Shown: in pieces, positions 3,885 to 42,830 of the stretch
How positions within the stretch are numbered: position 1 is the first letter of the stretch
Layout: each line of letters opens with the position of its first letter
Source: a virus
Taxonomy: Duplodnaviria; Heunggongvirae; Uroviricota; Caudoviricetes
Direction: 5' to 3' (one strand)
IMG/VR virus record: IMGVR_UViG_2778261422_000003
DNA length: 49,269 nt
Program-made: the position numbers and the translations under genes
The notes under the pieces: generated by a model
The model's database searches: none
What the model saw: only the letters and a program-made list of their open reading frames with translations
Told to the model about the DNA's origin: nothing

Positions 3885-6800
3885 TATGCAAGCCTCACAA
3901 TATAGTTAAATGCGATGTTTTTGACGGTGTTTTCCGCGTTACCAGCAGCGTTAACGGTGATGGTGTGTCCATGTGAACCAATCGCAACGGAGTGCGTATG
4001 AGCACCAATACCGACAGTATGTGCATGTGCGCCTGCGCTTGCAGCAGTGCCGGACAGCGAGTGGGTATGAGCACCATCTGATGATGTCTTCCCTGCATTA
4101 CGAGTCTGGCCACTACCGCTTGTTGTGCTCATAATCCCCGCGCTTAGATTTGAAATCGCGGTATAACCATTAGGGAAAATGCTCGTGTTCGTGCCACCAA
4201 ATGCACCGGAACTCTTGTGTTGGTGCGCACCGGCACTATTTGCGGTCCCGCTAATACTATGGGTATGCGCCCCGGTGTTATTCGTGGATTTGGTTCCGTA
4301 ATCAAACGACGATGTGGTTTTCGTCCCCAAATCCGTACTGGATGCGCTGGCGCTGTGGGTGTGCGATTTAATGCCGTCCTGTTCCTGAGATAATACGGCC
4401 CGACCACTGGCGGGCTTGCCCTTAATCGTCCAGCCACGCATATCAGGGATCACGCCTGACGGATAAGCAACTGCAAGTTTCGGGTATGCAGATTTGTCAA
4501 AAGTCTGCCCCTGCATCAGGGCATAACCAGACGGAACGGTATCTGATGGCCACGGGATTGGTGCACCGACTGGATAAAACTCTGCAGGAGGATGAGCCGA
4601 GGTGTAAAGCTGCGCCCACGGCGACCAGTTTGCGTCGGTCGTATCCCGTCGTGAACGAATAAATGCCGGAGCATGAGCACCGCTTGTACCACTCCAGCCG
4701 ATGAGTAACTCACCTTCGCCAACGGCTGTCATCCCTTTCAGGTGAATGATATTTCCATACGCTGTTGGATATCCGTTGTTATACACCTCGTATAACTCAA
4801 GACCTGCTGCCCCCTGCGTATTGTCTGTCAGCGCGGTTACCCGACCTTTTGAAGCCAGATTAACTGATGATACTGCTGTTCCACCTGACGGTAACGCCCC
4901 GATCTCTGATGCCGTTGGCTTATTTCTGGAGTTATAGTCCCTTCGCCAGCCAGGTGAATAATCTGTTCCGTGATTAATATAGGTAAACTGGGCGTTAGTT
5001 GTTCCACCACCAGTGGAGGTGGTCGGTGTGGTAATGCGGATCGTCATCGCTGACTTTATCCCCATTACTTCAATGACAGCTCCGGCGAGATGAATATTAC
5101 CGCAGTCAGTATCAGTAATGATTTTATTATTGCCATAAGACCAGGAACCCTTGCACATCCAGTATGGATGGTTAAATGCTCCCTGAGAATCCAGCCACTC
5201 GATAAACTGTGCAGTCGTCCAGTTTCCTGTTGTTGTGCTTACTGACCCACCGAAGGCACGGCAGGCACCAATATTTTTCGTAAAGGTATCTTTGCCAGGG
5301 ATATCCGCACCGTTCTGATCTTTCTGCAGACGTTTCTCAGCATTGTCATTGGCTGCTTTTACTGCCTTTGGTGTCGCGGCAAGCGTTTCAGACGTGCTGT
5401 TGGTCGCGCTGCTTAGCTGGATTATCCCTTTCTGTGCTGTCGTTGCATCCTGTGCGGTGTATTTCCCGTTAGCCAGGTCATACGCGGCCTTAACGGCTTT
5501 TGGTGTTGCCGCCAGTGACTCGGAAGTGCTGTTAGTCGCACTACTGAGCTGTACTATCCCCTTTTTCGTCGTGCTCGCATCCTCAAGCGCCACGGCGGAT
5601 GCAATATCCTCTGCCCGTTTTGCTGCTGTCTCGGCGCGCGTTGCTGCGGATTCTGCCGTACTTTTGCTCTGTGCTGCCGTTGCCGCACTGCCAGCAGCCT
5701 CTGTCGCCTTCGTGGATGCCGTCGTGGCGCTGCCCCTCGCTGCTGACGCCTGTCTGGTCGCCTCATCTTTTGAAGCAGACGCCGATGATGCCGATGACGC
5801 CGCCGAACTGGCGGACGATGCGGCAGCCGTTTTTGAGGATTCTGCGCTGGTTTCCGACGCTTTCGCGTTCGTTTCGGATGTCTTCGCTGCGGAAGCAGAC
5901 CTCGCTGCTGCGCTGGCCTGTTCAGTGGCTTCGCCAGCCTTCGTTGTGGCTGTTGAAGCGGATGATGCGGCGCTTTCTGCCGATTTTCCGGCGGCGGTGG
6001 CACTGACTGCTGCCTCCTCTGCCTTAATGGACGCCTCACGGGCCGATGATGCAGCTGTTGTCTCAGAGTCTGCCGCAGCTGAGGCGCTCTGTTCCGCTGC
6101 CGTTTCAGAAGACCTGGCGTTCGTCTCGGACGTTTTTGCCGCCTTCGCAGAATTTGCTGCCGCCGTTGCCGAGGAAGCGGCACTACTGGCGCTTGATGAT
6201 GCGTTCGTTTCTGATGATTTCGCTGCCTCTTTTGAGGCCGCCGCATCCCGGGCTGAAGTGGCGGCTTCTGACGCTTTCGTCGTCGCAGTGGATGCAGAAG
6301 TGGCTGCTGATTTTTGTGACGCTGCAGCATTCGTTTCTGACGTTTTCGCGGCACCGGCACTGGTGGCCGCCGCGCTTTTTGAGGACTCTGCAGCGGCAGC
6401 ACTTTTTGATGCTTCAGTGGCCTTTGTTGATGCCGTTCCTGCGCTGGAAGACGCCTCCTGAGCCGACGTCGCGGCCTGTCCGGCTGACGTGCTGGCTGCA
6501 CGCGCTGAGCCTGCAGCATCAGTCGCATGGGTTGCCGCCTCACTGGCAGATGTGCCGGCATCACTGGCTGACTTCTTCGCGGCTGCCGTGTTCTGTGCCA
6601 CCGCGGACGCGTTACGCGCCACCTCTTCCACCATCAGTTCAAAACGGCGCAGAGCCTCCGGACGGGCATCATCCTCCGTCATGGCACCGAGAAAATCATT
6701 CAGCGTACCGGGTCGGGAATCTTCATACACGGTGATGGTCCCGGCATGTGACGGCGGGAATCCTTCCACCAACAGAATAACGCTGTACTGACCGTACTCA

Positions 6801-33202: not shown

Positions 33203-33955
33203 TTATCTCGTCACCTTCCTCAATTGCGCTTCCGCGTATGCTTCTTCCTGCCAGCACTTTGTTACCAGTTTACCAATGACGTCCGCATACCCCTTATACC
33301 ACTGATAATCGGTCAGGTCTGGTACCAGCTTCTGGACATGACGTCGTGCCAGCGTGGTCGGTAAACGACTAAACCGGTTTCCATTACAACGCCCACAAAT
33401 CTTATATACCGGTACGCCATGAAACCGGGTTCTTTTTTCATCCAGAACAATCCCTTTACCCTTACACCCTCTGCACGCTGTGCTGGCTTCGCCCTTACCA
33501 TGGCAATGCTGACATAGTTCCTTCACCCATTCTTCCTTGATTACAGATTCCCCGCGTCTGTAGTGTTTCACCACTTCGCGCAATACATTATAAAATCCCG
33601 TACCTGAACAATGCTCACAGCGAGCCTTACTTGCCGCAGACCTGGAGTAATCAGCAAAGGCAAAACTCACGAGGTAAGGAATAATCTGTAACCGGATTTC
33701 TTCACTCAATTTGTTCAATGTCGGGTTATCCAGTGCCATCGCGTAATTTAGCAGGCCTTCAATCGCAAACTGAGGGTCCTGAACACCAACTTTTGCCAGA
33801 AATAAGGCCAACCCAAGTGGTGCTTTCGACTGCACCATCCCCTGCGCTGCCATTACATCCGTAATTGTTAAACAACCGGTGCCTGTCGCTGGAGCGTCAT
33901 CGCTCAATTTTGGAGATTTTGGGGAGTAATATTTTGGTAAGGCTTCAAGGTTCAT
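33203..33955 (-). CDS. quuQ: late-gene antiterminator Q (phage-21/82 type)
   Basis: ORF 33203..33985; start MNLEALPKYYSPKSPKL...; Cys-rich zinc-binding region (CEHCSGTG, CQHCHGKG, CRGCKGKG); located upstream of the lysis genes. Confidence 0.85.
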   Translation of the reverse strand: MNLEALPKYYSPKSPKLSDDAPATGTGCLTITDVMAAQGMVQSKAPLGLALFLAKVGVQDPQFAIEGLLNYAMALDNPTLNKLSEEIRLQIIPYLVSFAFADYSRSAASKARCEHCSGTGFYNVLREVVKHYRRGESVIKEEWVKELCQHCHGKGEASTACRGCKGKGIVLDEKRTRFHGVPVYKICGRCNGNRFSRLPTTLARRHVQKLVPDLTDYQWYKGYADVIGKLVTKCWQEEAYAEAQLRKVTR

Positions 33956-33968
33956 GCTCGTTCTCCAC

Positions 33969-34895
33969 TTACGCCAGTACGCCAATTGCCAGCGCGCGAT
34001 CGATAAAACGAAATATCAGCTCCAGTTGGGAGCCATACTTCTCTTCAAATGCCACTGTATCCGTATGCAGCTCGTTGTGATGCTTTCTGCACAAAGGCAA
34101 CACAAAGAGATCATGTGCTTTTGTTCCCATTCCGCCCTGCCCGTGACCAATCAGATGATGCGGATCGTCGGCTGGCATACCGCAGCAAGCACACGGCTGT
34201 GTCTTAACCCAATGTGTGTATTTCTCCTTAACCCAGCGGCGACGTTTAGGCAGCTTCATGAAAGATTCCGGAGACTCTGGATCAACGGTGATGCTTACCA
34301 CCGTCTTTTCCTGTGGTGATTTTTGTTGCTGGTGGGCGTAAGGCAACGGTGCAAGATTTTTTGTGCGTTGTTTCAATATGCTGGTGGCGGTCTGCTCTCC
34401 CGGTACGATGTCGCTTTCGCGGTACACCGAGCAGATTTTTTCCGCTGGTAATCCCAGCGAACGACGCGATACAGCCTCAGGTAGTGCATCCACCACCTGA
34501 TTGCAGACCGCCCACCAGGATAATTCAGCCAAAGATAATTCCCGCTCCTGCGTACCGCTTATTGCGTGACGGATGACGTCAATCACCCATGCTGTCAGAT
34601 TTTGTTGAGCAAGCAGCTCCAGTGATTCCGATGTCTGGTCACGCAGTTGGTTGTCGCAGTGCCAGCACAACACCATTGCGCCGGTACCATAACGGTGAAT
34701 GACTGTTTCAGTGTGATGGTAATCGCCATTAGGCCACTGGCAGGATGTAACATGACGTAATAGCCAGTCGGACAATGCGCCAACGCCGCCAGCAGCACGA
34801 ATCACCCGTTCGTTACTAAAAAACGGCAGCAATGTTTTGTCTTCCGCCAGCGGCTGGCGAACGGCAGGAACGACTCCGGATGGCAGATTACGCAT
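33969..34895 (-). CDS. ydfU: DUF968-family prophage protein (YdfU-like)
   Basis: ORF 33969..35057; Cys/His-rich C-terminus (CACCGMPADDPHHLIGHGQGGMGTKAHD...CRKHHNELH); Qin ydfU position; true start uncertain, internal Met at 34895 proposed. Confidence 0.65.
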   Translation of the reverse strand: MRNLPSGVVPAVRQPLAEDKTLLPFFSNERVIRAAGGVGALSDWLLRHVTSCQWPNGDYHHTETVIHRYGTGAMVLCWHCDNQLRDQTSESLELLAQQNLTAWVIDVIRHAISGTQERELSLAELSWWAVCNQVVDALPEAVSRRSLGLPAEKICSVYRESDIVPGEQTATSILKQRTKNLAPLPYAHQQQKSPQEKTVVSITVDPESPESFMKLPKRRRWVKEKYTHWVKTQPCACCGMPADDPHHLIGHGQGGMGTKAHDLFVLPLCRKHHNELHTDTVAFEEKYGSQLELIFRFIDRALAIGVLA

Positions 34896-35019
34896 GCTTT
34901 TTGGTTCCGGTTCCACCAGCACTCGAGGATTATGAAATATCTGTATGGATTCACGGCCCGGCTTAAGGACCACCAGCCCAAGCTCAGGCACCAGAACAGG
35001 TCTAAGTAATACCCGCACG

Positions 35020-35298
35020 TTACCTCCAGATCCGTTGCTGGAAAGTGCGGGACGCACGTGGTGGGCGTTCGGAATAAGGCAGCCTGACAGAGATTATCCA
35101 GTGCCGATAGTCGAGACTGAGAGCTTTCTTAACCTCGAACCCGCGCCTGCGGTAAGAATGAATCAGCCATTCGGCCTGTTCTGCAGTGCATGGAGGGTGC
35201 TGGAACCATTCAGACTTGAATGCGTGAGAATACCGCCCGTGCGTGCAGGCAAGAACGGGCGAATTATCAGAATTGTAATATTTTGCGTTGCGTGCCAT
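35020..35298 (-). CDS. hypothetical protein
   Basis: 92-aa ORF between rem and the DUF968 gene; no recognised motif. Confidence 0.35.
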   Translation of the reverse strand: MARNAKYYNSDNSPVLACTHGRYSHAFKSEWFQHPPCTAEQAEWLIHSYRRRGFEVKKALSLDYRHWIISVRLPYSERPPRASRTFQQRIWR

Positions 35299-35364: not shown

Positions 35365-35616
35365 TTATTCTCCTGAAAAAGCAGAAAAGCCAGCTTTTAT
35401 TCCGATCTCTTTCAATGCCTGTAATGAAGTGACAAACTCACCTTCGCGCAAGATAAATCCGTCCGTGACCCGAGCATCCACAAAATTAATTAACGCAGCC
35501 CCATTCTTTCGCAAACACATAATGCGGTAATGACTAACAAGATTTCCATTTTCAACGCACACAGCATAGAGGCCATCTTCACAAAAAATTTTACGCAGTT
35601 CTTCGATGTTCATCAT
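35365..35616 (-). CDS. rem: Rem-like small prophage protein
   Basis: 83-aa ORF MMNIEELRKIFCEDGLYAVCVENGNLVSHYRIMCLRKNGAALINF...; recalled match to Qin Rem. Confidence 0.7.
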   Translation of the reverse strand: MMNIEELRKIFCEDGLYAVCVENGNLVSHYRIMCLRKNGAALINFVDARVTDGFILREGEFVTSLQALKEIGIKAGFSAFSGE

Positions 35617-35746
35617 CAGAATCCTTCCGGATAATTAGCTCTCCCCTTTAAGGGACCATCCCTCTTATCCCTGCGCGCTACTTAAGTATTTTTGATTCTA
35701 TTCCGGCACCGTCCAGAACTTCAAACGCGTTGAAAATAAAAACAAA

Positions 35747-35764
35747 AACCCGCCGAAGCGGGTT
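35747..35764 (-). terminator. intrinsic terminator downstream of hok
   Basis: hairpin aacccgc-cgaa-gcgggtt; on the minus strand followed by a T-rich run (ttttgtttttatttt). Confidence 0.65.
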
Positions 35765-35832
35765 AAGTGCGGGTGCGTTGAGGATGCCTGCCACATCAGA
35801 GGTGGCGAGGGATTTCTCCCTCGCCGGGTCTC

Positions 35833-35988
35833 TTACTCCTCAGGTTCGTAAGCTGTGAAGACAGCGACCTCCGTCTGGCCGGTTCGGATTCGTACCTCGC
35901 AGAGGTCTTGCCTCGTTACCAGTGCCGTCACTATGACGGTTAAACAGATGACGATCAGGGCGATTAACATCGCCTTTTGCTGCTTCAT
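35833..35988 (-). CDS. hokD: Hok-family type I toxin
   Basis: ORF 35833..36045; internal start MKQQKAMLIALIVICLTVIVTALVTRQDLCEVRIRTGQTEVAVFTAYEPEE (51 aa) matches the Hok/RelF family; structured leader with 9-bp inverted repeat about 36105..36145. Confidence 0.85.
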   Translation of the reverse strand: MKQQKAMLIALIVICLTVIVTALVTRQDLCEVRIRTGQTEVAVFTAYEPEE

Positions 35989-37177
35989 AGCCTGCTTCTC
36001 CTTGCCTTCCGGCACGTAAGAGGCTAACCTACATGTGTCTAGCATGAAATTGGCCTCAGATTAATGTTAAGCGTCTTGCAGGACGCGTAATGTTAACTGG
36101 GGCTTTTCTCTATCTGCCTTTGGTGTTCACGCCCGAGGCAGATAGCCTCAAGCACCCGCAGGCATTCTACTTAACTCCCGTTACCTCGCCAATATGCAAT
36201 CAGTCAGAAAGGCGATCCATAAGAACAATGGCAAGAAAATAAATCGCCATTACAGCCGCAATAGCCAACGCACATTTGAGAACCAGCACCACAACCTCCT
36301 GTATTGGACGTACACCAGTCCTGATAAATATGAGGCTGTCTCGTCAGTGATTCAATGCAACTATTAGATATAGTTTCTCTGTTTTTTCTATGGAAATGGG
36401 ACACAACAACCTGTCGCAACCAACGCTTCTTTAAACAGACTAAATCAGGCGCAAGTCAACATTTTGTACAAGCAGAACGTAACCTGTTCTAACAGAACTC
36501 TTTGAATGAACAGCAATGATTACGCTCACAACGACTGATTGTTATTTGATATAATCCCCTGTACTCCTACGGCTATGCACGTTCAACTCCAGCGTTACAT
36601 TCGGTACCGGATAGTAATTCCATTCTCGGACATGGTATGAACGTAACCGGGTTGCCTCGACGTCCGAACGATTGCCTTAGTACGATGTGTTTTATATTTT
36701 TGCCTAACATCTGCTGGAAAGTTTCACCAATCACCATTTTATCCCAGCTTTCAAAGGATTTCTGGAACCAGAATAATTTTCTGGCGCAGGAATCTTCTTC
36801 ATTTATTACATCCTCCACCAGTAAAGTTATCAATGATTCAACTTAACATACGGTAATGATATCCACTTTAGTTCTACACACTTTAGAGATTTTCATTTTT
36901 TCTATCATCAGTCAGTACTCTTCTGAGTGACCGGCTATTCAGGTATTCATAAAGTCGCTCGCTGTTGTATTGGCAACTTCTGGATCTGGGACTAAGCAAA
37001 CCACTAAGTTGGAAAATGTCCGCTGTGAGCGAGCAGTGGTCATTGCTTACAGCATTCTATGTGAATTAACAGTGGACTAGGCACAATGAACACCTGAGGG
37101 ATCACATTTCATAGGTGACAGTTAAACGCGCTATAAGCAGTCCTTAACAAGAAGGACTGTTATCTGAACTGCCTTGA

Positions 37178-38134
37178 CTAGTCTAGTCTCTGTGGAAAGA
37201 GCGCAAGATGCAGATCACCATACTTATCAGGATTTGAATTTATATGCATCAGCAAAACATCCAACTGATTTGTTAAATATTTATTCCTTTCTTTTTTCTC
37301 TTTATCTTCAATATCCTTGAGATTTTTCTTTTCTTCTTTTTCAATGGCTTTCCTTTCCTTTTCAGCTTTTTCCCTAATGTTTACATCTGCCAGTTTTTTA
37401 GCTTTATCCGCTCTAAACTTAATTAAATTATCAACAATACTCTTAACATATTGTTTACCAGATAGTATTTTTCTCGCCTCTTCGATAATAGTAATACTGT
37501 AATCAACACACTCATTACCATATTTAAAAGCATACTCAGGGGATAATTCTTTTATAGCTGAGGAACTAGAATTATCAGACAAATATGGTTCACTTAAATG
37601 AGCGAAAGATCCCCTATACGAGGAGAAATTTTCCCATGACGAAAAGTTTTCATCTTCCACATCACAATGAATACCTACAGATTGAAGAACAGAATTTAAA
37701 TGCTTTGTTTTTATTCCGTGATTGGAAGTGATGACACTCTTCCATTTCATGATAGTCCTCATTTCACAATCAACAATAAACTCAACAACATGTTGTTTTA
37801 TATAAGAACTATCATCATCCCTATCATCAGCATCCTCGTTAGTAACAAATCTGTCATCATAACTTTTCGTCCCATTTAATAAAAACATCAATGGTATAGT
37901 AACCTCCCCACATTCTTTGAACAGGAAAAACGAATATTTAGCGACAAAAAGGCTGACATCCTCAACAAAATTTTCAAGAGCTGCATGTAATAGAACACAA
38001 TAACTTCTTGTATCTAATTTAAATTCCTCAACACTACCAGTACCGTTCATGTGTTTTTTAAGAAAGCGATTATACAAGGCATCATTTGCGTCATACAGAG
38101 TGTAATACATATCATCTAATAAGGTAATCTCCAT
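37178..38134 (-). CDS. uncharacterised protein, distal gene of the AT-rich cargo operon; candidate effector partner of the DUF262 protein
   Basis: 318-aa ORF starting 5 nt after the upstream gene's stop (operon-like); very AT-rich codon usage; R-x4-H motif (YRGSFAH); acidic patch (EDADDRDDD); Lys/Glu-rich coiled-coil C-terminus. Confidence 0.75.
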   Translation of the reverse strand: MEITLLDDMYYTLYDANDALYNRFLKKHMNGTGSVEEFKLDTRSYCVLLHAALENFVEDVSLFVAKYSFFLFKECGEVTIPLMFLLNGTKSYDDRFVTNEDADDRDDDSSYIKQHVVEFIVDCEMRTIMKWKSVITSNHGIKTKHLNSVLQSVGIHCDVEDENFSSWENFSSYRGSFAHLSEPYLSDNSSSSAIKELSPEYAFKYGNECVDYSITIIEEARKILSGKQYVKSIVDNLIKFRADKAKKLADVNIREKAEKERKAIEKEEKKNLKDIEDKEKKERNKYLTNQLDVLLMHINSNPDKYGDLHLALFPQRLD

Positions 38135-38138
38135 TTTT

Positions 38139-39326
38139 TTACCTTAAGGTTGATGGGATCTCATTGCTTAATCCCATTGAAGAATTTAATCTTTCATATG
38201 CCAGTCTAAACCTTCTTACATGTTGTTCTTTACCTGTCGTAGTTGACTCAATTGCTACAACAAACTCAGCATTATCAAAAAGAGATTTTATAGAGTTAAT
38301 AAATTCATTTTTTTTCTCTATTAAATCATCTACCTTGTTATTCTGTATTGTACTAGCAATATAGTTAACTAAAACCTCAAAAAATGTACGATTAAATCTT
38401 GATTCCCATCGTTCCTCTATTGGAAGCCATTTTCTACCTACTTTTGTTTCTTCACCATCAAAAAGGTTGACAAGCACCTCACATGATTCATTAAAAAGGT
38501 TGAGATAGTTACATACACCAGCTTCTTTAGATGCGAAATTATCATTCATCAATTTAGTGAAGTTATCTAAATAGACCCTAAGAGAACCATTGTATTTTTC
38601 TGGGTTAAGGTTTAATGCTAGAAACTTCAATAAAATCTCAACATCCCGATATCTTTTATCTGATGACTTAAGTTTCATTATTTTATGCAGATGCAAATCG
38701 TTATCTGTATGCCTTGTAATGAAATTACTAAAATCCCCTTTGTAAATCGAGTTCCTCAACTCCTGCATAGACAATGGTGAAGATCCAGTATTTAGTCTGT
38801 AAAATATATCATATAGGACGCTATAATCCTTAAAACCTGAAAGTATTGTGCAGCGTAGATCAGCATTGAGTAAGAATCTAGCATCGTCTTTAGAAAACTC
38901 TGAGAATTTCAACCCTTCAATCGATTTTTTAATTGTTAGATTTCTTAACTTAGCATTACCATCCCATGTATTAAAACTAGGATCGATGAAACCATTTATA
39001 GCTAATAGTCTCTGTTTTCCATCGATGACCATGTATTTTTTCTTTTCGCCTATAACTTCAGCTAATACTACTTCGGGTACAGGGTACCCCACAAGTAATG
39101 ACTCTATAAGCTTTGATCTTTTATCGTTGTCCCATACATTTCTTCTTTGAAAGTCAGGATTCAAATCAATGTTTCCTTCCTCAATTTGATGAAGAATCGT
39201 CTGAACCGTCCAGTCTCTGGAATAAACAACAAGCTCTCCGACGTCTATATCGTTACCAGCGCTTTCAACTTGTTCTTTATTACTTTCAATAATCAAATCA
39301 TCTAATTCATCAATCATTGTATTCAC
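38139..39326 (-). CDS. DUF262 (ParB/Srx-fold, GmrS-like) domain protein, proximal gene of the AT-rich cargo operon
   Basis: 395-aa ORF; N-terminal region carries the DUF262 signature (PDFQRRNVWDNDKRSKLIESLLVGYPVP ... MVIDGKQRLLAINGF); no DUF1524/HNH-like motif seen in the C-terminal 250 residues. Confidence 0.8.
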   Translation of the reverse strand: MNTMIDELDDLIIESNKEQVESAGNDIDVGELVVYSRDWTVQTILHQIEEGNIDLNPDFQRRNVWDNDKRSKLIESLLVGYPVPEVVLAEVIGEKKKYMVIDGKQRLLAINGFIDPSFNTWDGNAKLRNLTIKKSIEGLKFSEFSKDDARFLLNADLRCTILSGFKDYSVLYDIFYRLNTGSSPLSMQELRNSIYKGDFSNFITRHTDNDLHLHKIMKLKSSDKRYRDVEILLKFLALNLNPEKYNGSLRVYLDNFTKLMNDNFASKEAGVCNYLNLFNESCEVLVNLFDGEETKVGRKWLPIEERWESRFNRTFFEVLVNYIASTIQNNKVDDLIEKKNEFINSIKSLFDNAEFVVAIESTTTGKEQHVRRFRLAYERLNSSMGLSNEIPSTLR

Positions 39327-39715
39327 CTTATTTACTATGTTAAGTAGTAAGAGTCAAGTTGACTCATCTTAAAATCTACCTTCCCTTCCTTGTCTAGCAC
39401 CGGAAGACAAACGTCCCACAGTGTTTTTTTACTGCACTCTCATCTCGAAAGCTATAAGTAGTTCTCTGTGCCATTCTACTGCTGGTTTCAAGGAATATTA
39501 TCTGGTTTCCAATTTTACAATATCTACTCTATTTTTGTATCGACTAATGCTATAAGCAATATAACTGAAGCACACTTTATTATGCTACCCTCCATTTTCG
39601 GCTATGATTCAAACCTACAAACATTGAATTTACTGTTATAAGGAGATTTTTACCACGTCCGCTTCTGGCATAAAGTTGACATACGGATACGAACGAAATA
39701 AGTGCTCTAGAATTC

Positions 39716-40432
39716 TTATTGTTTATATTGGGCAAGATTTTTAATAATACTTTCCCTCTCATTAAGGAGACTTATATACATTGATTCATCGAGTGTATTC
39801 TTGAGCTTGAAACGGGATTTATGTATTGATAATTTAGATACACCATCACTTAATGCTGAAGCAACTAATTTTGTATCTTCTATGTTTTTTAGGTTCGATA
39901 GTAGCGTTAGGATCATATCATTTAGATCAAGTAACTCGCTATTTATGCGCATAGGTGAGAGGTCTTTACTATCTAGTTGAGAGTTAATGGAATCAATCTT
40001 ATTATTAATTCTCTCTATAGACCCAACGATTCCTTTTCTAGCTTCAATACGAAGGATTTCACTCTTGTTTCTAGAGTTTGTCTGGAAAAGCATTTCTGAA
40101 GATAACATTGATGACGCACGATACATATCAGAGGCTAACTGCTTAACACTTTCTCTAAAGCTTGAATAATTTAATATTGCTGAACCAAACAATAAAATAA
40201 TTGGGCCATAAGCAGTTACCTTTGCTTTAATTGAACCTTCAGTAAATTTAATTTCAATTAAAACATCATCAGATAAAAAGAATTTTATTCTTTTATCAGC
40301 AAAATCCTCTATTTCGTTTCTAATTCGCGATAACTTTTCTTTACGAATTACAGCACTTACCTGTTTCAACCATCTCGGCTCAACATGAACATATGACTCA
40401 CATAATATGTTGCTGTTTATATAATCGGCCAC
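39716..40432 (-). CDS. uncharacterised protein in the AT-rich cargo island, separate transcription unit upstream of the DUF262 operon
   Basis: 238-aa ORF, AT-rich, Ser/Leu/Ile/Asn-rich; about 390 bp intergenic gap to the downstream DUF262 gene; no recognisable motif. Confidence 0.6.
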   Translation of the reverse strand: MADYINSNILCESYVHVEPRWLKQVSAVIRKEKLSRIRNEIEDFADKRIKFFLSDDVLIEIKFTEGSIKAKVTAYGPIILLFGSAILNYSSFRESVKQLASDMYRASSMLSSEMLFQTNSRNKSEILRIEARKGIVGSIERINNKIDSINSQLDSKDLSPMRINSELLDLNDMILTLLSNLKNIEDTKLVASALSDGVSKLSIHKSRFKLKNTLDESMYISLLNERESIIKNLAQYKQ

Positions 40433-40682: not shown

Positions 40683-41108
40683 TCACTTCATTAAATACCT
40701 AACATCTCCCTGATAAAATGACAATATGCGCTGCATAACTTCGCTCTTCCGGCACTCGTGACAGATTATGTTCAGACGCCTGTCATAGCGGCGTATTTCT
40801 CCGTCTGGTAACGACCAGATAAGGTCCGGATCAACCACAGATGTTTTTTTCTTCAGCTTTGCCCTTGAGAGTTTTTTGCGGGCATTTTGCCAGTCCTTAC
40901 GAGCCTGTTCAGACGGGAATAACCCGTAACCAGAGTTGTATACATCGCCACTGGCAACCAGCTCTCTGGCAAGAACGCTCATCAGATATCTTGTCGCACC
41001 TGTCTTGGCTTCCAGTTGCCGTAACGTCTCACGACCGCTCTGGCGCACGAGTTCCACCACCTGCCCTTTAATTTTTTCCCGCTCTTCTTGTGTAAAAACT
41101 TTTGCCAC
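40683..41108 (-). CDS. hypothetical protein downstream of the replication initiator
   Basis: 141-aa basic ORF with normal GC content; occupies the position where lambda carries P, but is too small for a helicase loader or helicase. Confidence 0.5.
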   Translation of the reverse strand: MAKVFTQEEREKIKGQVVELVRQSGRETLRQLEAKTGATRYLMSVLARELVASGDVYNSGYGLFPSEQARKDWQNARKKLSRAKLKKKTSVVDPDLIWSLPDGEIRRYDRRLNIICHECRKSEVMQRILSFYQGDVRYLMK

Positions 41109-41148
41109 AAGTCCCCCTTAAAATTACCTCATGACCTGAAATCAACAC

Positions 41149-42168
41149 TTATCCCCTGAAACCAGGCGGAATTTCGGTATCCGGTTCAGAAATATGATTC
41201 ACACAACGCTTTATTGGCGAACGCCCCAGGCGAATAACCAGCTCATCCCATTTTTCGCGAAGCTTTGACGGACTCATGATGTTTTTGACCCAGAATGGAT
41301 CTCGCTGTACCCGACCAAACATTTCGCAAATTTGTCTGTGGCTTCTGCCATCCAGCATCCGCATTGTGCGCACGTCATTGGCCCAGGCAGTCCAGTTAGG
41401 CTCTTTTGGTCGCATGATCTCGCCATCATCACTGGCGGCCTGTTCGTAGAGACCCACGATCCGCCCCCAGATCCACTGCGCACACGCCAAATCCTCCTGG
41501 CTACCCCACTGCCGTTTTTTCGCACTAAACACAACTGCGTCAGGGTGCCGGATTAAAAAATCCTGTTCAGCCGTCTGCTGGTCCGGTTGCAAAGCTTCCG
41601 GACGAAAAGTGTTTTTATTCTCTGTAGTAATCTCTGTTGTATTCTCTGTAGGATCATCGGGCCATTTTGACCCGATGACATTGGGTCGTTTTGAACCAAT
41701 GGAGCGTTTCATTTTGACCTCTTCCATCATGTCATTTTGACCTGATGGAGCGACGCATTTTGAACTGATGGATTCGCTCAATTTGCCACCATCTAAAAGA
41801 TCGCTCCCGTAGTTGATCGTGTAGAAATTGGTCATGTCGCGCTTTGATTTATTGAGCTTTTCGCAACGCAAAAGCCCCAGCGTTTTCAGACTTGCAAACG
41901 CGCGCTTTAACGTTGACTCTGACCAGAATGGGAACTGCGCCAGCCATTGTTCCGTTGTGTTGTAAATCCAGCGAACACCATCGCATTCCATGCCGGAATT
42001 GGTATCTCTCAACCAGTAATGCAGTTGCTGCAACACAATGGCTTCGTTTAAGCCAATCTTCATCGCAAGCTGTGTGTTTATAACCAGTGGGCGTTCAGCA
42101 AAAAGAAGGCTCATAATTCCATCCAGCTTTTTGTTGGTATTGCTGTCGATACGCAAGCTTGAAAGCAA
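41149..42168 (-). CDS. replication initiator protein (lambda O-like replisome organiser) containing ori iterons
   Basis: 339-aa ORF downstream of the cro/cII-like genes; an iteron array lies inside the coding sequence as in lambda O; true start may be an internal Met (MSLLFAERP...). Confidence 0.7.
   Translation of the reverse strand: MLSSLRIDSNTNKKLDGIMSLLFAERPLVINTQLAMKIGLNEAIVLQQLHYWLRDTNSGMECDGVRWIYNTTEQWLAQFPFWSESTLKRAFASLKTLGLLRCEKLNKSKRDMTNFYTINYGSDLLDGGKLSESISSKCVAPSGQNDMMEEVKMKRSIGSKRPNVIGSKWPDDPTENTTEITTENKNTFRPEALQPDQQTAEQDFLIRHPDAVVFSAKKRQWGSQEDLACAQWIWGRIVGLYEQAASDDGEIMRPKEPNWTAWANDVRTMRMLDGRSHRQICEMFGRVQRDPFWVKNIMSPSKLREKWDELVIRLGRSPIKRCVNHISEPDTEIPPGFRG
41660..41775. repeat. 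origin iterons: about five direct repeats of the cattttgaccYgatgga motif
   Basis: ccattttgacccgatgac, cgttttgaaccaatggag, tcattttgacctcttcca, tcattttgacctgatggag, gcattttgaactgatggat spaced about 23 bp apart inside the initiator gene. Confidence 0.75.
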
Positions 42169-42616
42169 TTGCTTTTTCTATAAGTTCGTCAGTTTCACGA
42201 TCTACAACGGCAGGATCTGCAAAAAGCAGTCCGGACTCCACCACATCGCCATATTCTTTATTTAACCCAGCGATCATGTACGTAATACTCTTTCCGTCAC
42301 TAATTTCACGATACAACCTGAAATCACTAATCCGGATAGCCTCCATAATTGCAGGCACTAGCGCTGTGAACTTTTCACGCTTATCCCTGGTGTCGATAGC
42401 CTTCCAGCGTTCGAATATCTTCACTCGATTAACGCTAAGCGCTCGCTGATCAACCGCGCCACCTTCATATGTGACACGCTGAACATCGATGTTCGGGCGC
42501 TCTTTCAAAGCCCAGAATGCTTCAGTGATTAATATCGTCGCCTGCTCCTGTGTCATTCCTGGTCGACATATCCAGGCATCCAGAGCCTCACGAGCCTGTT
42601 CAGGAGTGATTTTCAT
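42095..42616 (-). CDS. hypothetical regulatory protein in the cII / YdaT position
   Basis: 173-aa ORF immediately downstream of the cro-like dicC and upstream of the replication initiator; function inferred from position only. Confidence 0.45.
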   Translation of the reverse strand: MKITPEQAREALDAWICRPGMTQEQATILITEAFWALKERPNIDVQRVTYEGGAVDQRALSVNRVKIFERWKAIDTRDKREKFTALVPAIMEAIRISDFRLYREISDGKSITYMIAGLNKEYGDVVESGLLFADPAVVDRETDELIEKAIAFKLAYRQQYQQKAGWNYEPSFC

Positions 42617-42830
42617 TGTTCAACCGCCCCGCCCGCTTCGTCTTACGATATTCGTCATAAACTTTGGGATCATACTGAAGCTCCCCGCCAGATGCCTCCT
42701 GTAGACGCATCGCGCGACCTTCGGGAACTAAATCCCCTTTCCAGCTATAAAGCGAAGCCAAACGAATACCTGCTGCTTGTGCAAGTTTTGTTTTTGAACC
42801 GAAATACAAAAGAGCGTCAGTTTTAAGCAT
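42600..42830 (-). CDS. dicC: Cro-like HTH regulator DicC
   Basis: 76-aa ORF MLKTDALLYFGSKTKLAQAAGIRLASLYSWKGDLVPEG... matching recalled DicC; divergent from dicA. Confidence 0.85.
   Translation of the reverse strand: MLKTDALLYFGSKTKLAQAAGIRLASLYSWKGDLVPEGRAMRLQEASGGELQYDPKVYDEYRKTKRAGRLNNENHS

Follow-up and report, generated by a model that had tools for sequence, protein, structure and literature searches.

We analysed the replication genes at positions 40,683 to 42,168 of a 49,269-nucleotide (nt) stretch of viral DNA (Caudoviricetes; IMG/VR record IMGVR_UViG_2778261422_000003), the whole of which is referred to here as the window. These genes belong to the early-right operon of a lambdoid prophage, which is encoded on the minus strand in the order cro-cII-initiator-DUF977-cargo. 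As an original prediction made from the sequence alone had stated, the operon contains a lambda-O-like initiator gene with the replication origin inside it, and the open reading frames (ORFs) and base composition confirmed that this gene is followed by one for a protein of 141 amino acids (aa) and then by AT-rich cargo. The same prediction had found no recognisable helicase loader, and this also held: Pfam, PHROGs and NCBIfam searches returned no helicase or helicase-loader match among the window ORFs scanned, which covered the early-right operon, the cargo, the region of hok, rem, HNH, Q and lysis genes, the small terminase subunit and the early-left ORFs including a RecE-like exonuclease, and there was no match to lambda P (PF06992) in the window. 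From sequence comparison, we conclude that this replication module, in which the origin sits inside the initiator gene and no helicase or loader gene turned up among the ORFs scanned, is complete and common, not broken, and that it probably works through the C-terminal tail of the initiator, which is of the type found in Escherichia coli DnaT and would dock a DnaC-type loader, here the host DnaB-DnaC complex.

The initiator and its internal origin

The mechanically called initiator ORF (41149..42168, minus strand) has 339 codons from a TTG start, and homologues and phage annotations place the start at the ATG at 42114, giving a protein of 321 aa. Homologues of 321 aa at 96% identity represent hundreds to thousands of sequences, and the RefSeq name was 'hypothetical protein' in 5 of the 6 full-junction records among those listed. 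The protein fell into PHROG 391 ('replication initiation O-like', 1e-91), and BLASTP aligned its residues 147-294 with residues 135-270 of lambda O (34% identity, E 7e-28); no Pfam (E <= 0.1) or NCBIfam family matched, and its placement came from PHROGs and this pairwise comparison only.

AlphaFold2 predicted a confident winged-helix N-terminal domain and a confident helical C-terminal domain, with a disordered linker (residues 116-177) between them and a disordered tail at the end (Table 1). The N-terminal domain, presumed to be the part that binds the iterons, is not the N-terminal domain of lambda O: lambda O itself matches Phage_rep_O (PF04492) at 5.7e-36, whereas the window initiator does not match this family. 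Judged by sequence, the C-terminal domain is a homologue of the half of lambda O that is reported to bind P (PMC6022878), and by tblastn 372 phage records contain this domain, those of lambda, phage 21, phi80 and Stx phages among them.

Within the initiator gene, five origin iterons are spaced at 23 or 24 bp across 41655-41785, and in the repeat search every copy was partially palindromic around TCAAAA(T/C)G (for example, in gene orientation, TCCATCAGGTCAAAATGACATGATGGA). The earlier count of about five direct repeats was borne out, since the pattern CATTTTGAMCYGATGGA, with up to 3 mismatches, matched at 41663, 41687, 41733 and 41756, and a weaker fifth copy at 41710 keeps the 23-bp phase. Elsewhere in the 49 kb this pattern had one match only, at 6630-6646, against 0.51 expected for the whole window; it is isolated and fits chance, and we rejected it as a further site. 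Directly downstream of the iterons in gene direction are three A-rich, strand-biased units (TACAGAGAATAC, AACAGAGATTAC and TACAGAGAATAA in gene orientation), which code for TENTTEITTENK in the disordered linker and lie at a local GC minimum (0.35), and which we regard as a candidate DNA-unwinding element. The linker corresponds exactly to what the iterons and the A-rich stretch encode. The initiator's own coding sequence thus holds both the iterons and the AT-rich region that belong to the functional definition of lambda O. A DnaA-dependent origin was not indicated, with 4 DnaA-box matches in the window against 4.7 expected and none in the origin.

The two parts of this origin differ in how they are conserved. 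Iterons are kept in homologues with the same N-terminal domain and altered where that domain has diverged or is a different one: the window has CATCAGGTCAAAATG, a diverged relative with a similar N-terminus has CATTGGGTCAAATTG, the SfIV type has CCGTCAAAATCTGAC and lambda has TCCCTCAAAACGAGGGA. All 5 window-type relatives examined keep the A-rich stretch (protein TE(N/T)TTEITTE). An ACAGAGA-type A-rich repeat that codes for TENTTEITTENK also occurs in six loci (L043, L047, L060, L067, L174 and L178) whose iterons and N-terminal domains differ. The conservation of the A-rich repeat suggests a constraint at the level of DNA rather than protein, as would be expected for an unwinding element, and the combination of iterons that vary with the N-terminal domain and an A-rich stretch that stays would fit specific recognition of the iterons together with a sequence-independent unwinding element.

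The whole arrangement parallels that of lambda O-P. In both, the origin lies in the initiator gene, where phased dyad iterons built on a TCAAAA core adjoin an A-rich stretch, and both elements fall in the part that codes for a flexible linker; the architecture of the lambda iterons (ATCCCTCAAAACGAGGGA) parallels that of the window iterons, and the window A-rich repeat takes the position of the lambda AT-rich region. The two modules also share the position after cro-cII, a homologous C-terminal domain (over about 150 residues) and a Ren-family gene that closes the module. They differ in that the window initiator has an N-terminal domain other than Phage_rep_O, is not accompanied by a P gene, and carries a DnaT-type tail where lambda O has a tryptophan (Trp)-rich tail ending ...NTDWIYGVDL. 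RepA_N plasmid initiators and DnaD-like primosome proteins are further removed, having no detectable sequence similarity to the window initiator, another C-terminal domain and other hosts.

Tail type and loader type

The last 20 residues of the initiator, KRCVNHISEPDTEIPPGFRG, are identical to the C-terminal end of E. coli DnaT at 16 of 20 positions, and 17 of 21 aligned residues match the DnaT chains of PDB entries 2ru8 and 9zbt. The DnaT profile NCBIfam PRK02854 matched the initiator over profile positions 159-179 only (16.9 bits against a cut-off of 201), so that the protein is not a full-length DnaT equivalog, and the motif VNxxSxPDxxIPPGFRG-COOH stands at its extreme C-terminus. In other respects the two proteins differ: the initiator lacks the DnaT N-terminal domain, acidic linker and three-helix bundle that binds single-stranded DNA, and DnaT is a restart factor, whereas the initiator would be a sequence-specific origin binder. 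Over the last 22 codons, 17 of 22 residues and 43 of 69 nt are identical to dnaT, which argues that the peptide has been kept by selection and was not recently copied; recent capture of the tail from the host dnaT by recombination was rejected because this nucleotide identity is so low.

The same tail is common to unrelated initiator scaffolds, among them Rac YdaU (DUF1376), the 'primosomal protein I' of Stx phage POCJ13 and the SfIV replication protein (HTH_36), and tblastn matched it in Tritos, Gifsy-1, Gifsy-2, SPN1S and Klebsiella phages. Rac ydaU-ydaV-ydaW, POCJ13 and Gifsy-2, which pair a 'primosomal protein I / O homologue' with a DnaC-like protein, resemble the window in operon context and in the initiator tail (by sequence for Rac and POCJ13, by the tblastn match for Gifsy-2), and POCJ13 also has DUF977 downstream, close relatives of the window initiator having exactly this long form. 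They differ from the window in encoding a DnaC paralogue (IstB-like AAA+), usually together with a DUF1627/YdaW-like gene, both of which the window lacks, and YdaU and the POCJ13 primosomal protein I have N- and C-terminal domains unlike those of the window initiator. The order of a tail-bearing gene followed by a dnaC-type gene, as in the dnaT-dnaC operon of E. coli, thus recurs in phages.

We also noted a 274-aa prophage protein (L457, 804-1085) that bears this tail too, is 64% identical to DnaT over 94 residues and is followed by DUF1064 without DnaC; the SPN1S initiator (L010, 1748-2563, 271 aa) shares the DUF1064 neighbour, its likeness to this protein being confirmed for the tail only. 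Together with the reported phage origin of dnaC (PMC5509034), these cases hint at a possible descent of dnaT-dnaC from a phage pair of initiator and loader. Brezellec et al. (2017) likewise draw a parallel between O-P, DopC-DopE and DnaT-DnaC (PMC5509034). Literature searches on PPGFRG/IPPGF, on DnaT with lambdoid phages and on LygF/DUF977/YdaW found no paper describing the tail motif in phages.

To compare tails with loaders, we collected 333 IMG/VR loci with the O-type C-terminal domain and classified the tail and the next genes, 257 of the loci having at least 1.2 kb downstream. Among these 257, the DnaT-type tail was followed by a DnaC-like gene at 21 loci, by no recognisable loader at 132 and by lambda P at 0, and the Trp-rich lambda-type tail (NTDWIYG, HWNTAEAWENTL) was followed by lambda P at 99, by none at 1 and by DnaC at 0. 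Counted as clusters at 70% identity, P accompanied 0 of 8 DnaT-type and 7 of 8 lambda-type clusters (Fisher p = 0.0014). The commonest unclassified neighbours are PerC-like, LexA-like, Dam, MT-A70-like and RusA-like genes, which are not loaders by Pfam. The split also runs through a single backbone: SfIV-type initiators, 75% identical over residues 1-304, occur with a lambda-type tail and a PF06992 P gene (P0135, and likewise P0252) and with a DnaT-type tail and no loader. One lambda-type O (L291, IMG/VR), of the same length as lambda O and with a near-identical tail, has no P after it and may be a deletion variant or a misassembly. In the literature that we searched (on initiator-solo modules, on YdaU/YdaV/DnaT and on DnaT with lambdoid phages), we did not find this partition of tail type with loader type described.

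A scan of species-representative genomes with a degenerate DNA pattern for PDxxIPPGFRG-stop, which matched at least 120 loci, gave a similar picture, here and below among the matches listed. The motif was confined to enterobacterial sequence and lay in dnaT genes, mostly followed by dnaC, and in about 30 further ORFs, of which a few are dnaT fragments called wrongly and all others are prophage initiators. The gene after these roughly 30 ORFs was mostly DnaC-like, with no loader in some cases and P in none. Three records labelled as a Proteobacteria metagenome-assembled genome (MAG), a Bacillota MAG and Chryseobacterium (L364, L398 and L407) hold an enterobacterial dnaT-dnaC (DnaC 91-93% identical to that of E. 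coli) or an E. coli phage segment, and probably reflect contamination or mis-binning in public records.

The proposed route of helicase loading

Taking the domain layout, the origin and the tail together, we propose that the winged-helix N-terminal domain binds the five iterons within its own coding sequence, and that the initiator would then oligomerise as lambda O does, forming an O-some-like complex that would strain the neighbouring A-rich stretch open. At this point phage P takes over from lambda O; here the DnaT-type tail would instead dock a DnaC-type loader carrying DnaB, which would be the phage's own DnaC paralogue if it has one and otherwise, as in the window, the DnaB-DnaC complex of the host. 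The contact between the tail and DnaC(-DnaB) is one that we infer from gene neighbourhood and by analogy with lambda. Lambda Oam29 provides genetic evidence that O cannot do without its last five residues (PMC6022878), which shows that the C-terminal tail of an O-type protein can be critical to function.

A broader proposal, which may well be right but which we put forward tentatively, is that the last roughly 20 residues of O-type initiators are an exchangeable 'loader address', Trp-rich for lambda-P-type loaders and IPPGFRG for DnaC-type loaders. DnaT of E. coli carries the IPPGFRG tail and shares an operon with dnaC, so that, on the loader-address proposal, its tail would be the element with which the PriA-PriB-DnaT preprimosome recruits DnaB-DnaC, and dnaT-dnaC would resemble a domesticated phage module of initiator tail plus DnaC. 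The split between tails and loaders points to a short portable peptide that decides the helicase-loading route of a phage origin and, since the host DnaT ends in the same peptide, it implies a function for the DnaT tail as well. The means by which DnaB-DnaC is brought in by the preprimosome were still called unknown in a 2026 structural paper (PMC13377028), and the DnaT tail is a candidate for this role that is cheap to test.

Several points weigh against docking of a DnaC-type loader by the tail. The 257 loci behind the partition are phylogenetically clumped, forming just 17 clusters at 70% identity, and the 132 loci counted as having no recognisable loader are those with no match to the reference loaders, with Pfam checks on the commonest neighbours, so that a novel loader among the rarer neighbours is possible. 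The extreme tail of DnaT goes undiscussed in the 2026 preprimosome structures, whose authors favour the DnaT N-terminal domain as a possible recruiter of DnaB/DnaC (PMC13377028). The tail could bind PriA, PriB, single-stranded DNA-binding protein (SSB) or DNA instead. Finally, DopC, an O-like chromosomal protein of Cellvibrionales and Oceanospirillales, has been reported to have a DnaT C-terminal motif (HHpred to 2ru8) and yet pairs with the lambda-P-like DopE (Brezellec et al., 2017; PMC5509034). DopC-DopE, a domesticated lambda O/P-like pair, is like the window initiator in its O-like protein and its reportedly DnaT-like C-terminus, and differs from it in being chromosomal, in having no iterons and in having a partner that is P-like rather than DnaC-like (PMC5509034). 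If DopC carries an IPPGFRG-type tail, it is a possible counter-example that weakens an exclusive link between the tail and DnaC.

The main rival is that mimicry of DnaT is aimed at the restart primosome, the tail recruiting PriA and/or PriB or replacing DnaT, so that DnaB would be loaded at the melted origin through the PriA pathway. DnaT, which shares the tail, does have known partners in PriA (through its C-terminal domain) and PriB (through its linker), but in the structures PriA contacts the folded C-terminal domain and PriB the acidic linker, and the extreme tail is not described as a contact. Some prophage initiators are DnaT-like well beyond the tail, as in the case of 64% identity over 94 residues noted above, whereas the window initiator has the tail only, without the three-helix bundle or linker of DnaT. 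The restriction of the motif to enterobacterial sequence would also suit this rival, PriB, PriC and DnaT likewise not being widely conserved outside Gammaproteobacteria; the recurrent neighbour of tail-bearing genes is nevertheless DnaC-like, both in phages and in the dnaT-dnaC operon. On balance we consider loading through the restart primosome unlikely.

The initiator-DUF977 junction and neighbouring genes

A further possibility is that the prophage is replication-defective through loss of a loader. In this respect the sister phages, whose initiator DNA is 91-93% identical to that of the window, carry a 1.55-kb cassette exactly between the initiator stop and the DUF977 start, which contains a DnaC/YdaV-like AAA+ gene and a DUF1627/YdaW-like gene. 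In blastn comparisons with two of these loci (L043 and L028), similarity ran up to the initiator stop, broke at 41112-41148 and resumed at the start of DUF977, and the empty junction of the window consists of a conserved 40-nt spacer. The cassette is thus present or absent exactly at this junction, which makes the loader an optional cassette that the cargo did not displace: the suggestion that cargo insertion had displaced the loader placed it at the wrong site, since in the sister phages the loader sits between the initiator and DUF977 and not at the cargo site. What remains of that suggestion is that a DnaC-like cassette absent from this prophage is indeed found in close relatives. In the loci with the cassette (L043, 6973-8512; L028, 6973-8512; L004, 3567-5103), the DnaC-like gene is always paired with the DUF1627/YdaW-like double helix-turn-helix (HTH) protein, and P0127-type loci (L340) have a DUF1627-like gene without DnaC.

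Loss of such a cassette as a defect would be compatible with its presence in 6 of the 31 close relatives of the initiator in IMG/VR, but the other 25 are solo. A 601-bp query across the initiator/DUF977 junction was contiguous in 1,913 of 5,426 complete E. coli genomes (35%), with 100% identity in strain 2018-05-5CC. The order cro-cII-initiator-DUF977 without a loader also occurs in deposited genomes of the phages HannyBb (source 'bird poop'), mEp460_ev081 and PhiR42_1 (recorded host ECOR13), which are 95% identical to the window over the replication region, have early regions that are also without a loader, and carry different cargo. Other tail-bearing solo initiators are found in SfIV, SPN1S and Tritos records, and the initiator ORF of the window is itself intact and conserved. 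A defect of replication, which the original prediction had raised, does not agree with a junction this widespread, and we regard it as very unlikely.

Loader-less lambdoid modules are already known as a class, and pipelines already label such proteins 'primosomal protein I'. The label 'initiator-solo' for these modules reportedly goes back to Weigel and Seitz in 2006. The arrangement itself, being common and intact, we rate as ordinary, and the exposed variant as moderately interesting. For annotation, the lack of a loader gene beside a lambda-O-like initiator is no ground for assuming a defect, and the gain and loss of a DnaC-like cassette among near-identical phages suggests a trade-off between having a loader of one's own and using that of the host. 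An adjacent lambda-P-type loader and a lambda-type tail are both absent here, the next gene being DUF977 and the tail DnaT-type.

The 141-aa protein encoded by this next gene belongs to DUF977 (PF06163, 6e-29, 101 bits against a cut-off of 22.1) and to PHROG 142 ('Ren-like exclusion protein', 1e-45). BLASTP aligned it with lambda Ren (E 8e-6) across the winged-helix segment and a C-terminal motif, ECRxSxxMxRxL, that is conserved in DUF977/Ren (NIICHECRKSEVMQRILSFY vs NLVFKECRQSAAMKRVLAVY; E118, C119, R120, S122, M125, R127 and L129 invariant in the alignment), which places the protein in the DUF977/Ren family. AlphaFold2 predicted a winged helix, together with a long basic helix and a small element at the C-terminus, and no ATPase, a model that rests on a shallow alignment (the homologues among those listed were all at least 89% identical), and Foldseek with this model returned generic winged helix-turn-helix regulators only. 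Comparison with DnaC/IstB (PF01695), lambda P (PF06992) and DnaD-like families gave no match in Pfam, PHROGs or NCBIfam. The profile searches suggested at the outset thus assigned the 141-aa protein to DUF977/Ren and to no loader family, and left the initiator without a Pfam family. In lambda, Ren comes after P, and DUF977 also comes after modules already equipped with a DnaC-like loader (POCJ13 and the long-form relatives); other loader-less modules lack DUF977 and have a PerC-like or DUF1064 gene instead. By sequence and position the protein is, in our assessment, a longer homologue of ren, is not a replacement loader and is not needed for helicase loading. That it is an unusual replication partner, as first suggested, or a novel helicase-recruiting protein in place of P or DnaC is the least likely of the readings considered, for although it is basic, has a DNA-binding-type fold and always stands at the end of the replication genes, it is a Ren homologue with a generic winged-helix fold and no ATPase or loader family match, it occurs downstream of DnaC-containing modules, and it is missing from other solo modules.

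Table 1. Positions in the window of the replication module, its parts and the adjoining genes.
Feature	Position	Strand	Basis or remark
Cro/DicC-like gene	42600-42830	minus	First gene of early-right operon
CII/YdaT-like gene	42095-42616	minus	Pfam YdaT_toxin, PHROG 163 CII-like; overlaps initiator start
Replication initiator	41149..42114	minus	321 aa from ATG; PHROG 391, lambda O BLASTP, AlphaFold2
N-terminal winged-helix domain, residues 6-115	41770..42099	minus	AlphaFold2
Origin iterons, five copies	41655..41785		Repeat search and pattern scan
A-rich, strand-biased 3 x 12-bp repeat	41616..41651		Repeat search; directly downstream of iterons in gene direction
O-type helical C-terminal domain, residues 178-299	41218..41583	minus	Predicted local distance difference test (pLDDT) 84-97; BLASTP vs lambda O
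C-terminal tail, residues 300-321	41152..41217	minus	pLDDT 44-66; ends KRCVNHISEPDTEIPPGFRG-COOH
Initiator/DUF977 spacer	41109..41148		40 nt; cassette site in sister phages
DUF977 / LygF protein, 141 aa	40683..41108	minus	PF06163, PHROG 142, lambda Ren alignment
AT-rich cargo, 3 ORFs	37178..40432	minus	Variable slot downstream of Ren-like gene

The cargo (about 3.3 kb) has a GC content of 0.32-0.38 at 37-41 kb against 0.45-0.6 elsewhere in the window, and is not part of the replication module. Its three ORFs encode a 238-aa protein (PHROG 31894, unknown function), a 395-aa GmrSD_N/DUF262 protein that matches PADLOC NsnA (2.8e-65) and PD-T4-2_A, and a 318-aa HEPN (RiboL-PSP) protein, and from these matches the cargo looks like a defence island. 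Related phages have methyltransferases, insertion sequence (IS) elements, toxin-antitoxin or other genes in this slot.

At the other side of the initiator, some assemblies call it fused with the CII/YdaT-like gene (448-aa proteins P0001, P0003 and P0004, with Pfam YdaT_toxin plus the initiator), perhaps through a frameshift or an artefact of annotation where the two genes overlap by 20 nt. Two ORFs, one resembling small toxins of the hok/mok kind (35833-36045) and one resembling rem (35365-35616), lie on the minus strand upstream of the genes for a 362-aa HNH endonuclease (PHROG 96) and for a Q-like antiterminator; HNH and Q (33203-35057, minus strand) and hok and rem (35365-36045, minus strand) are laid out as in HannyBb.

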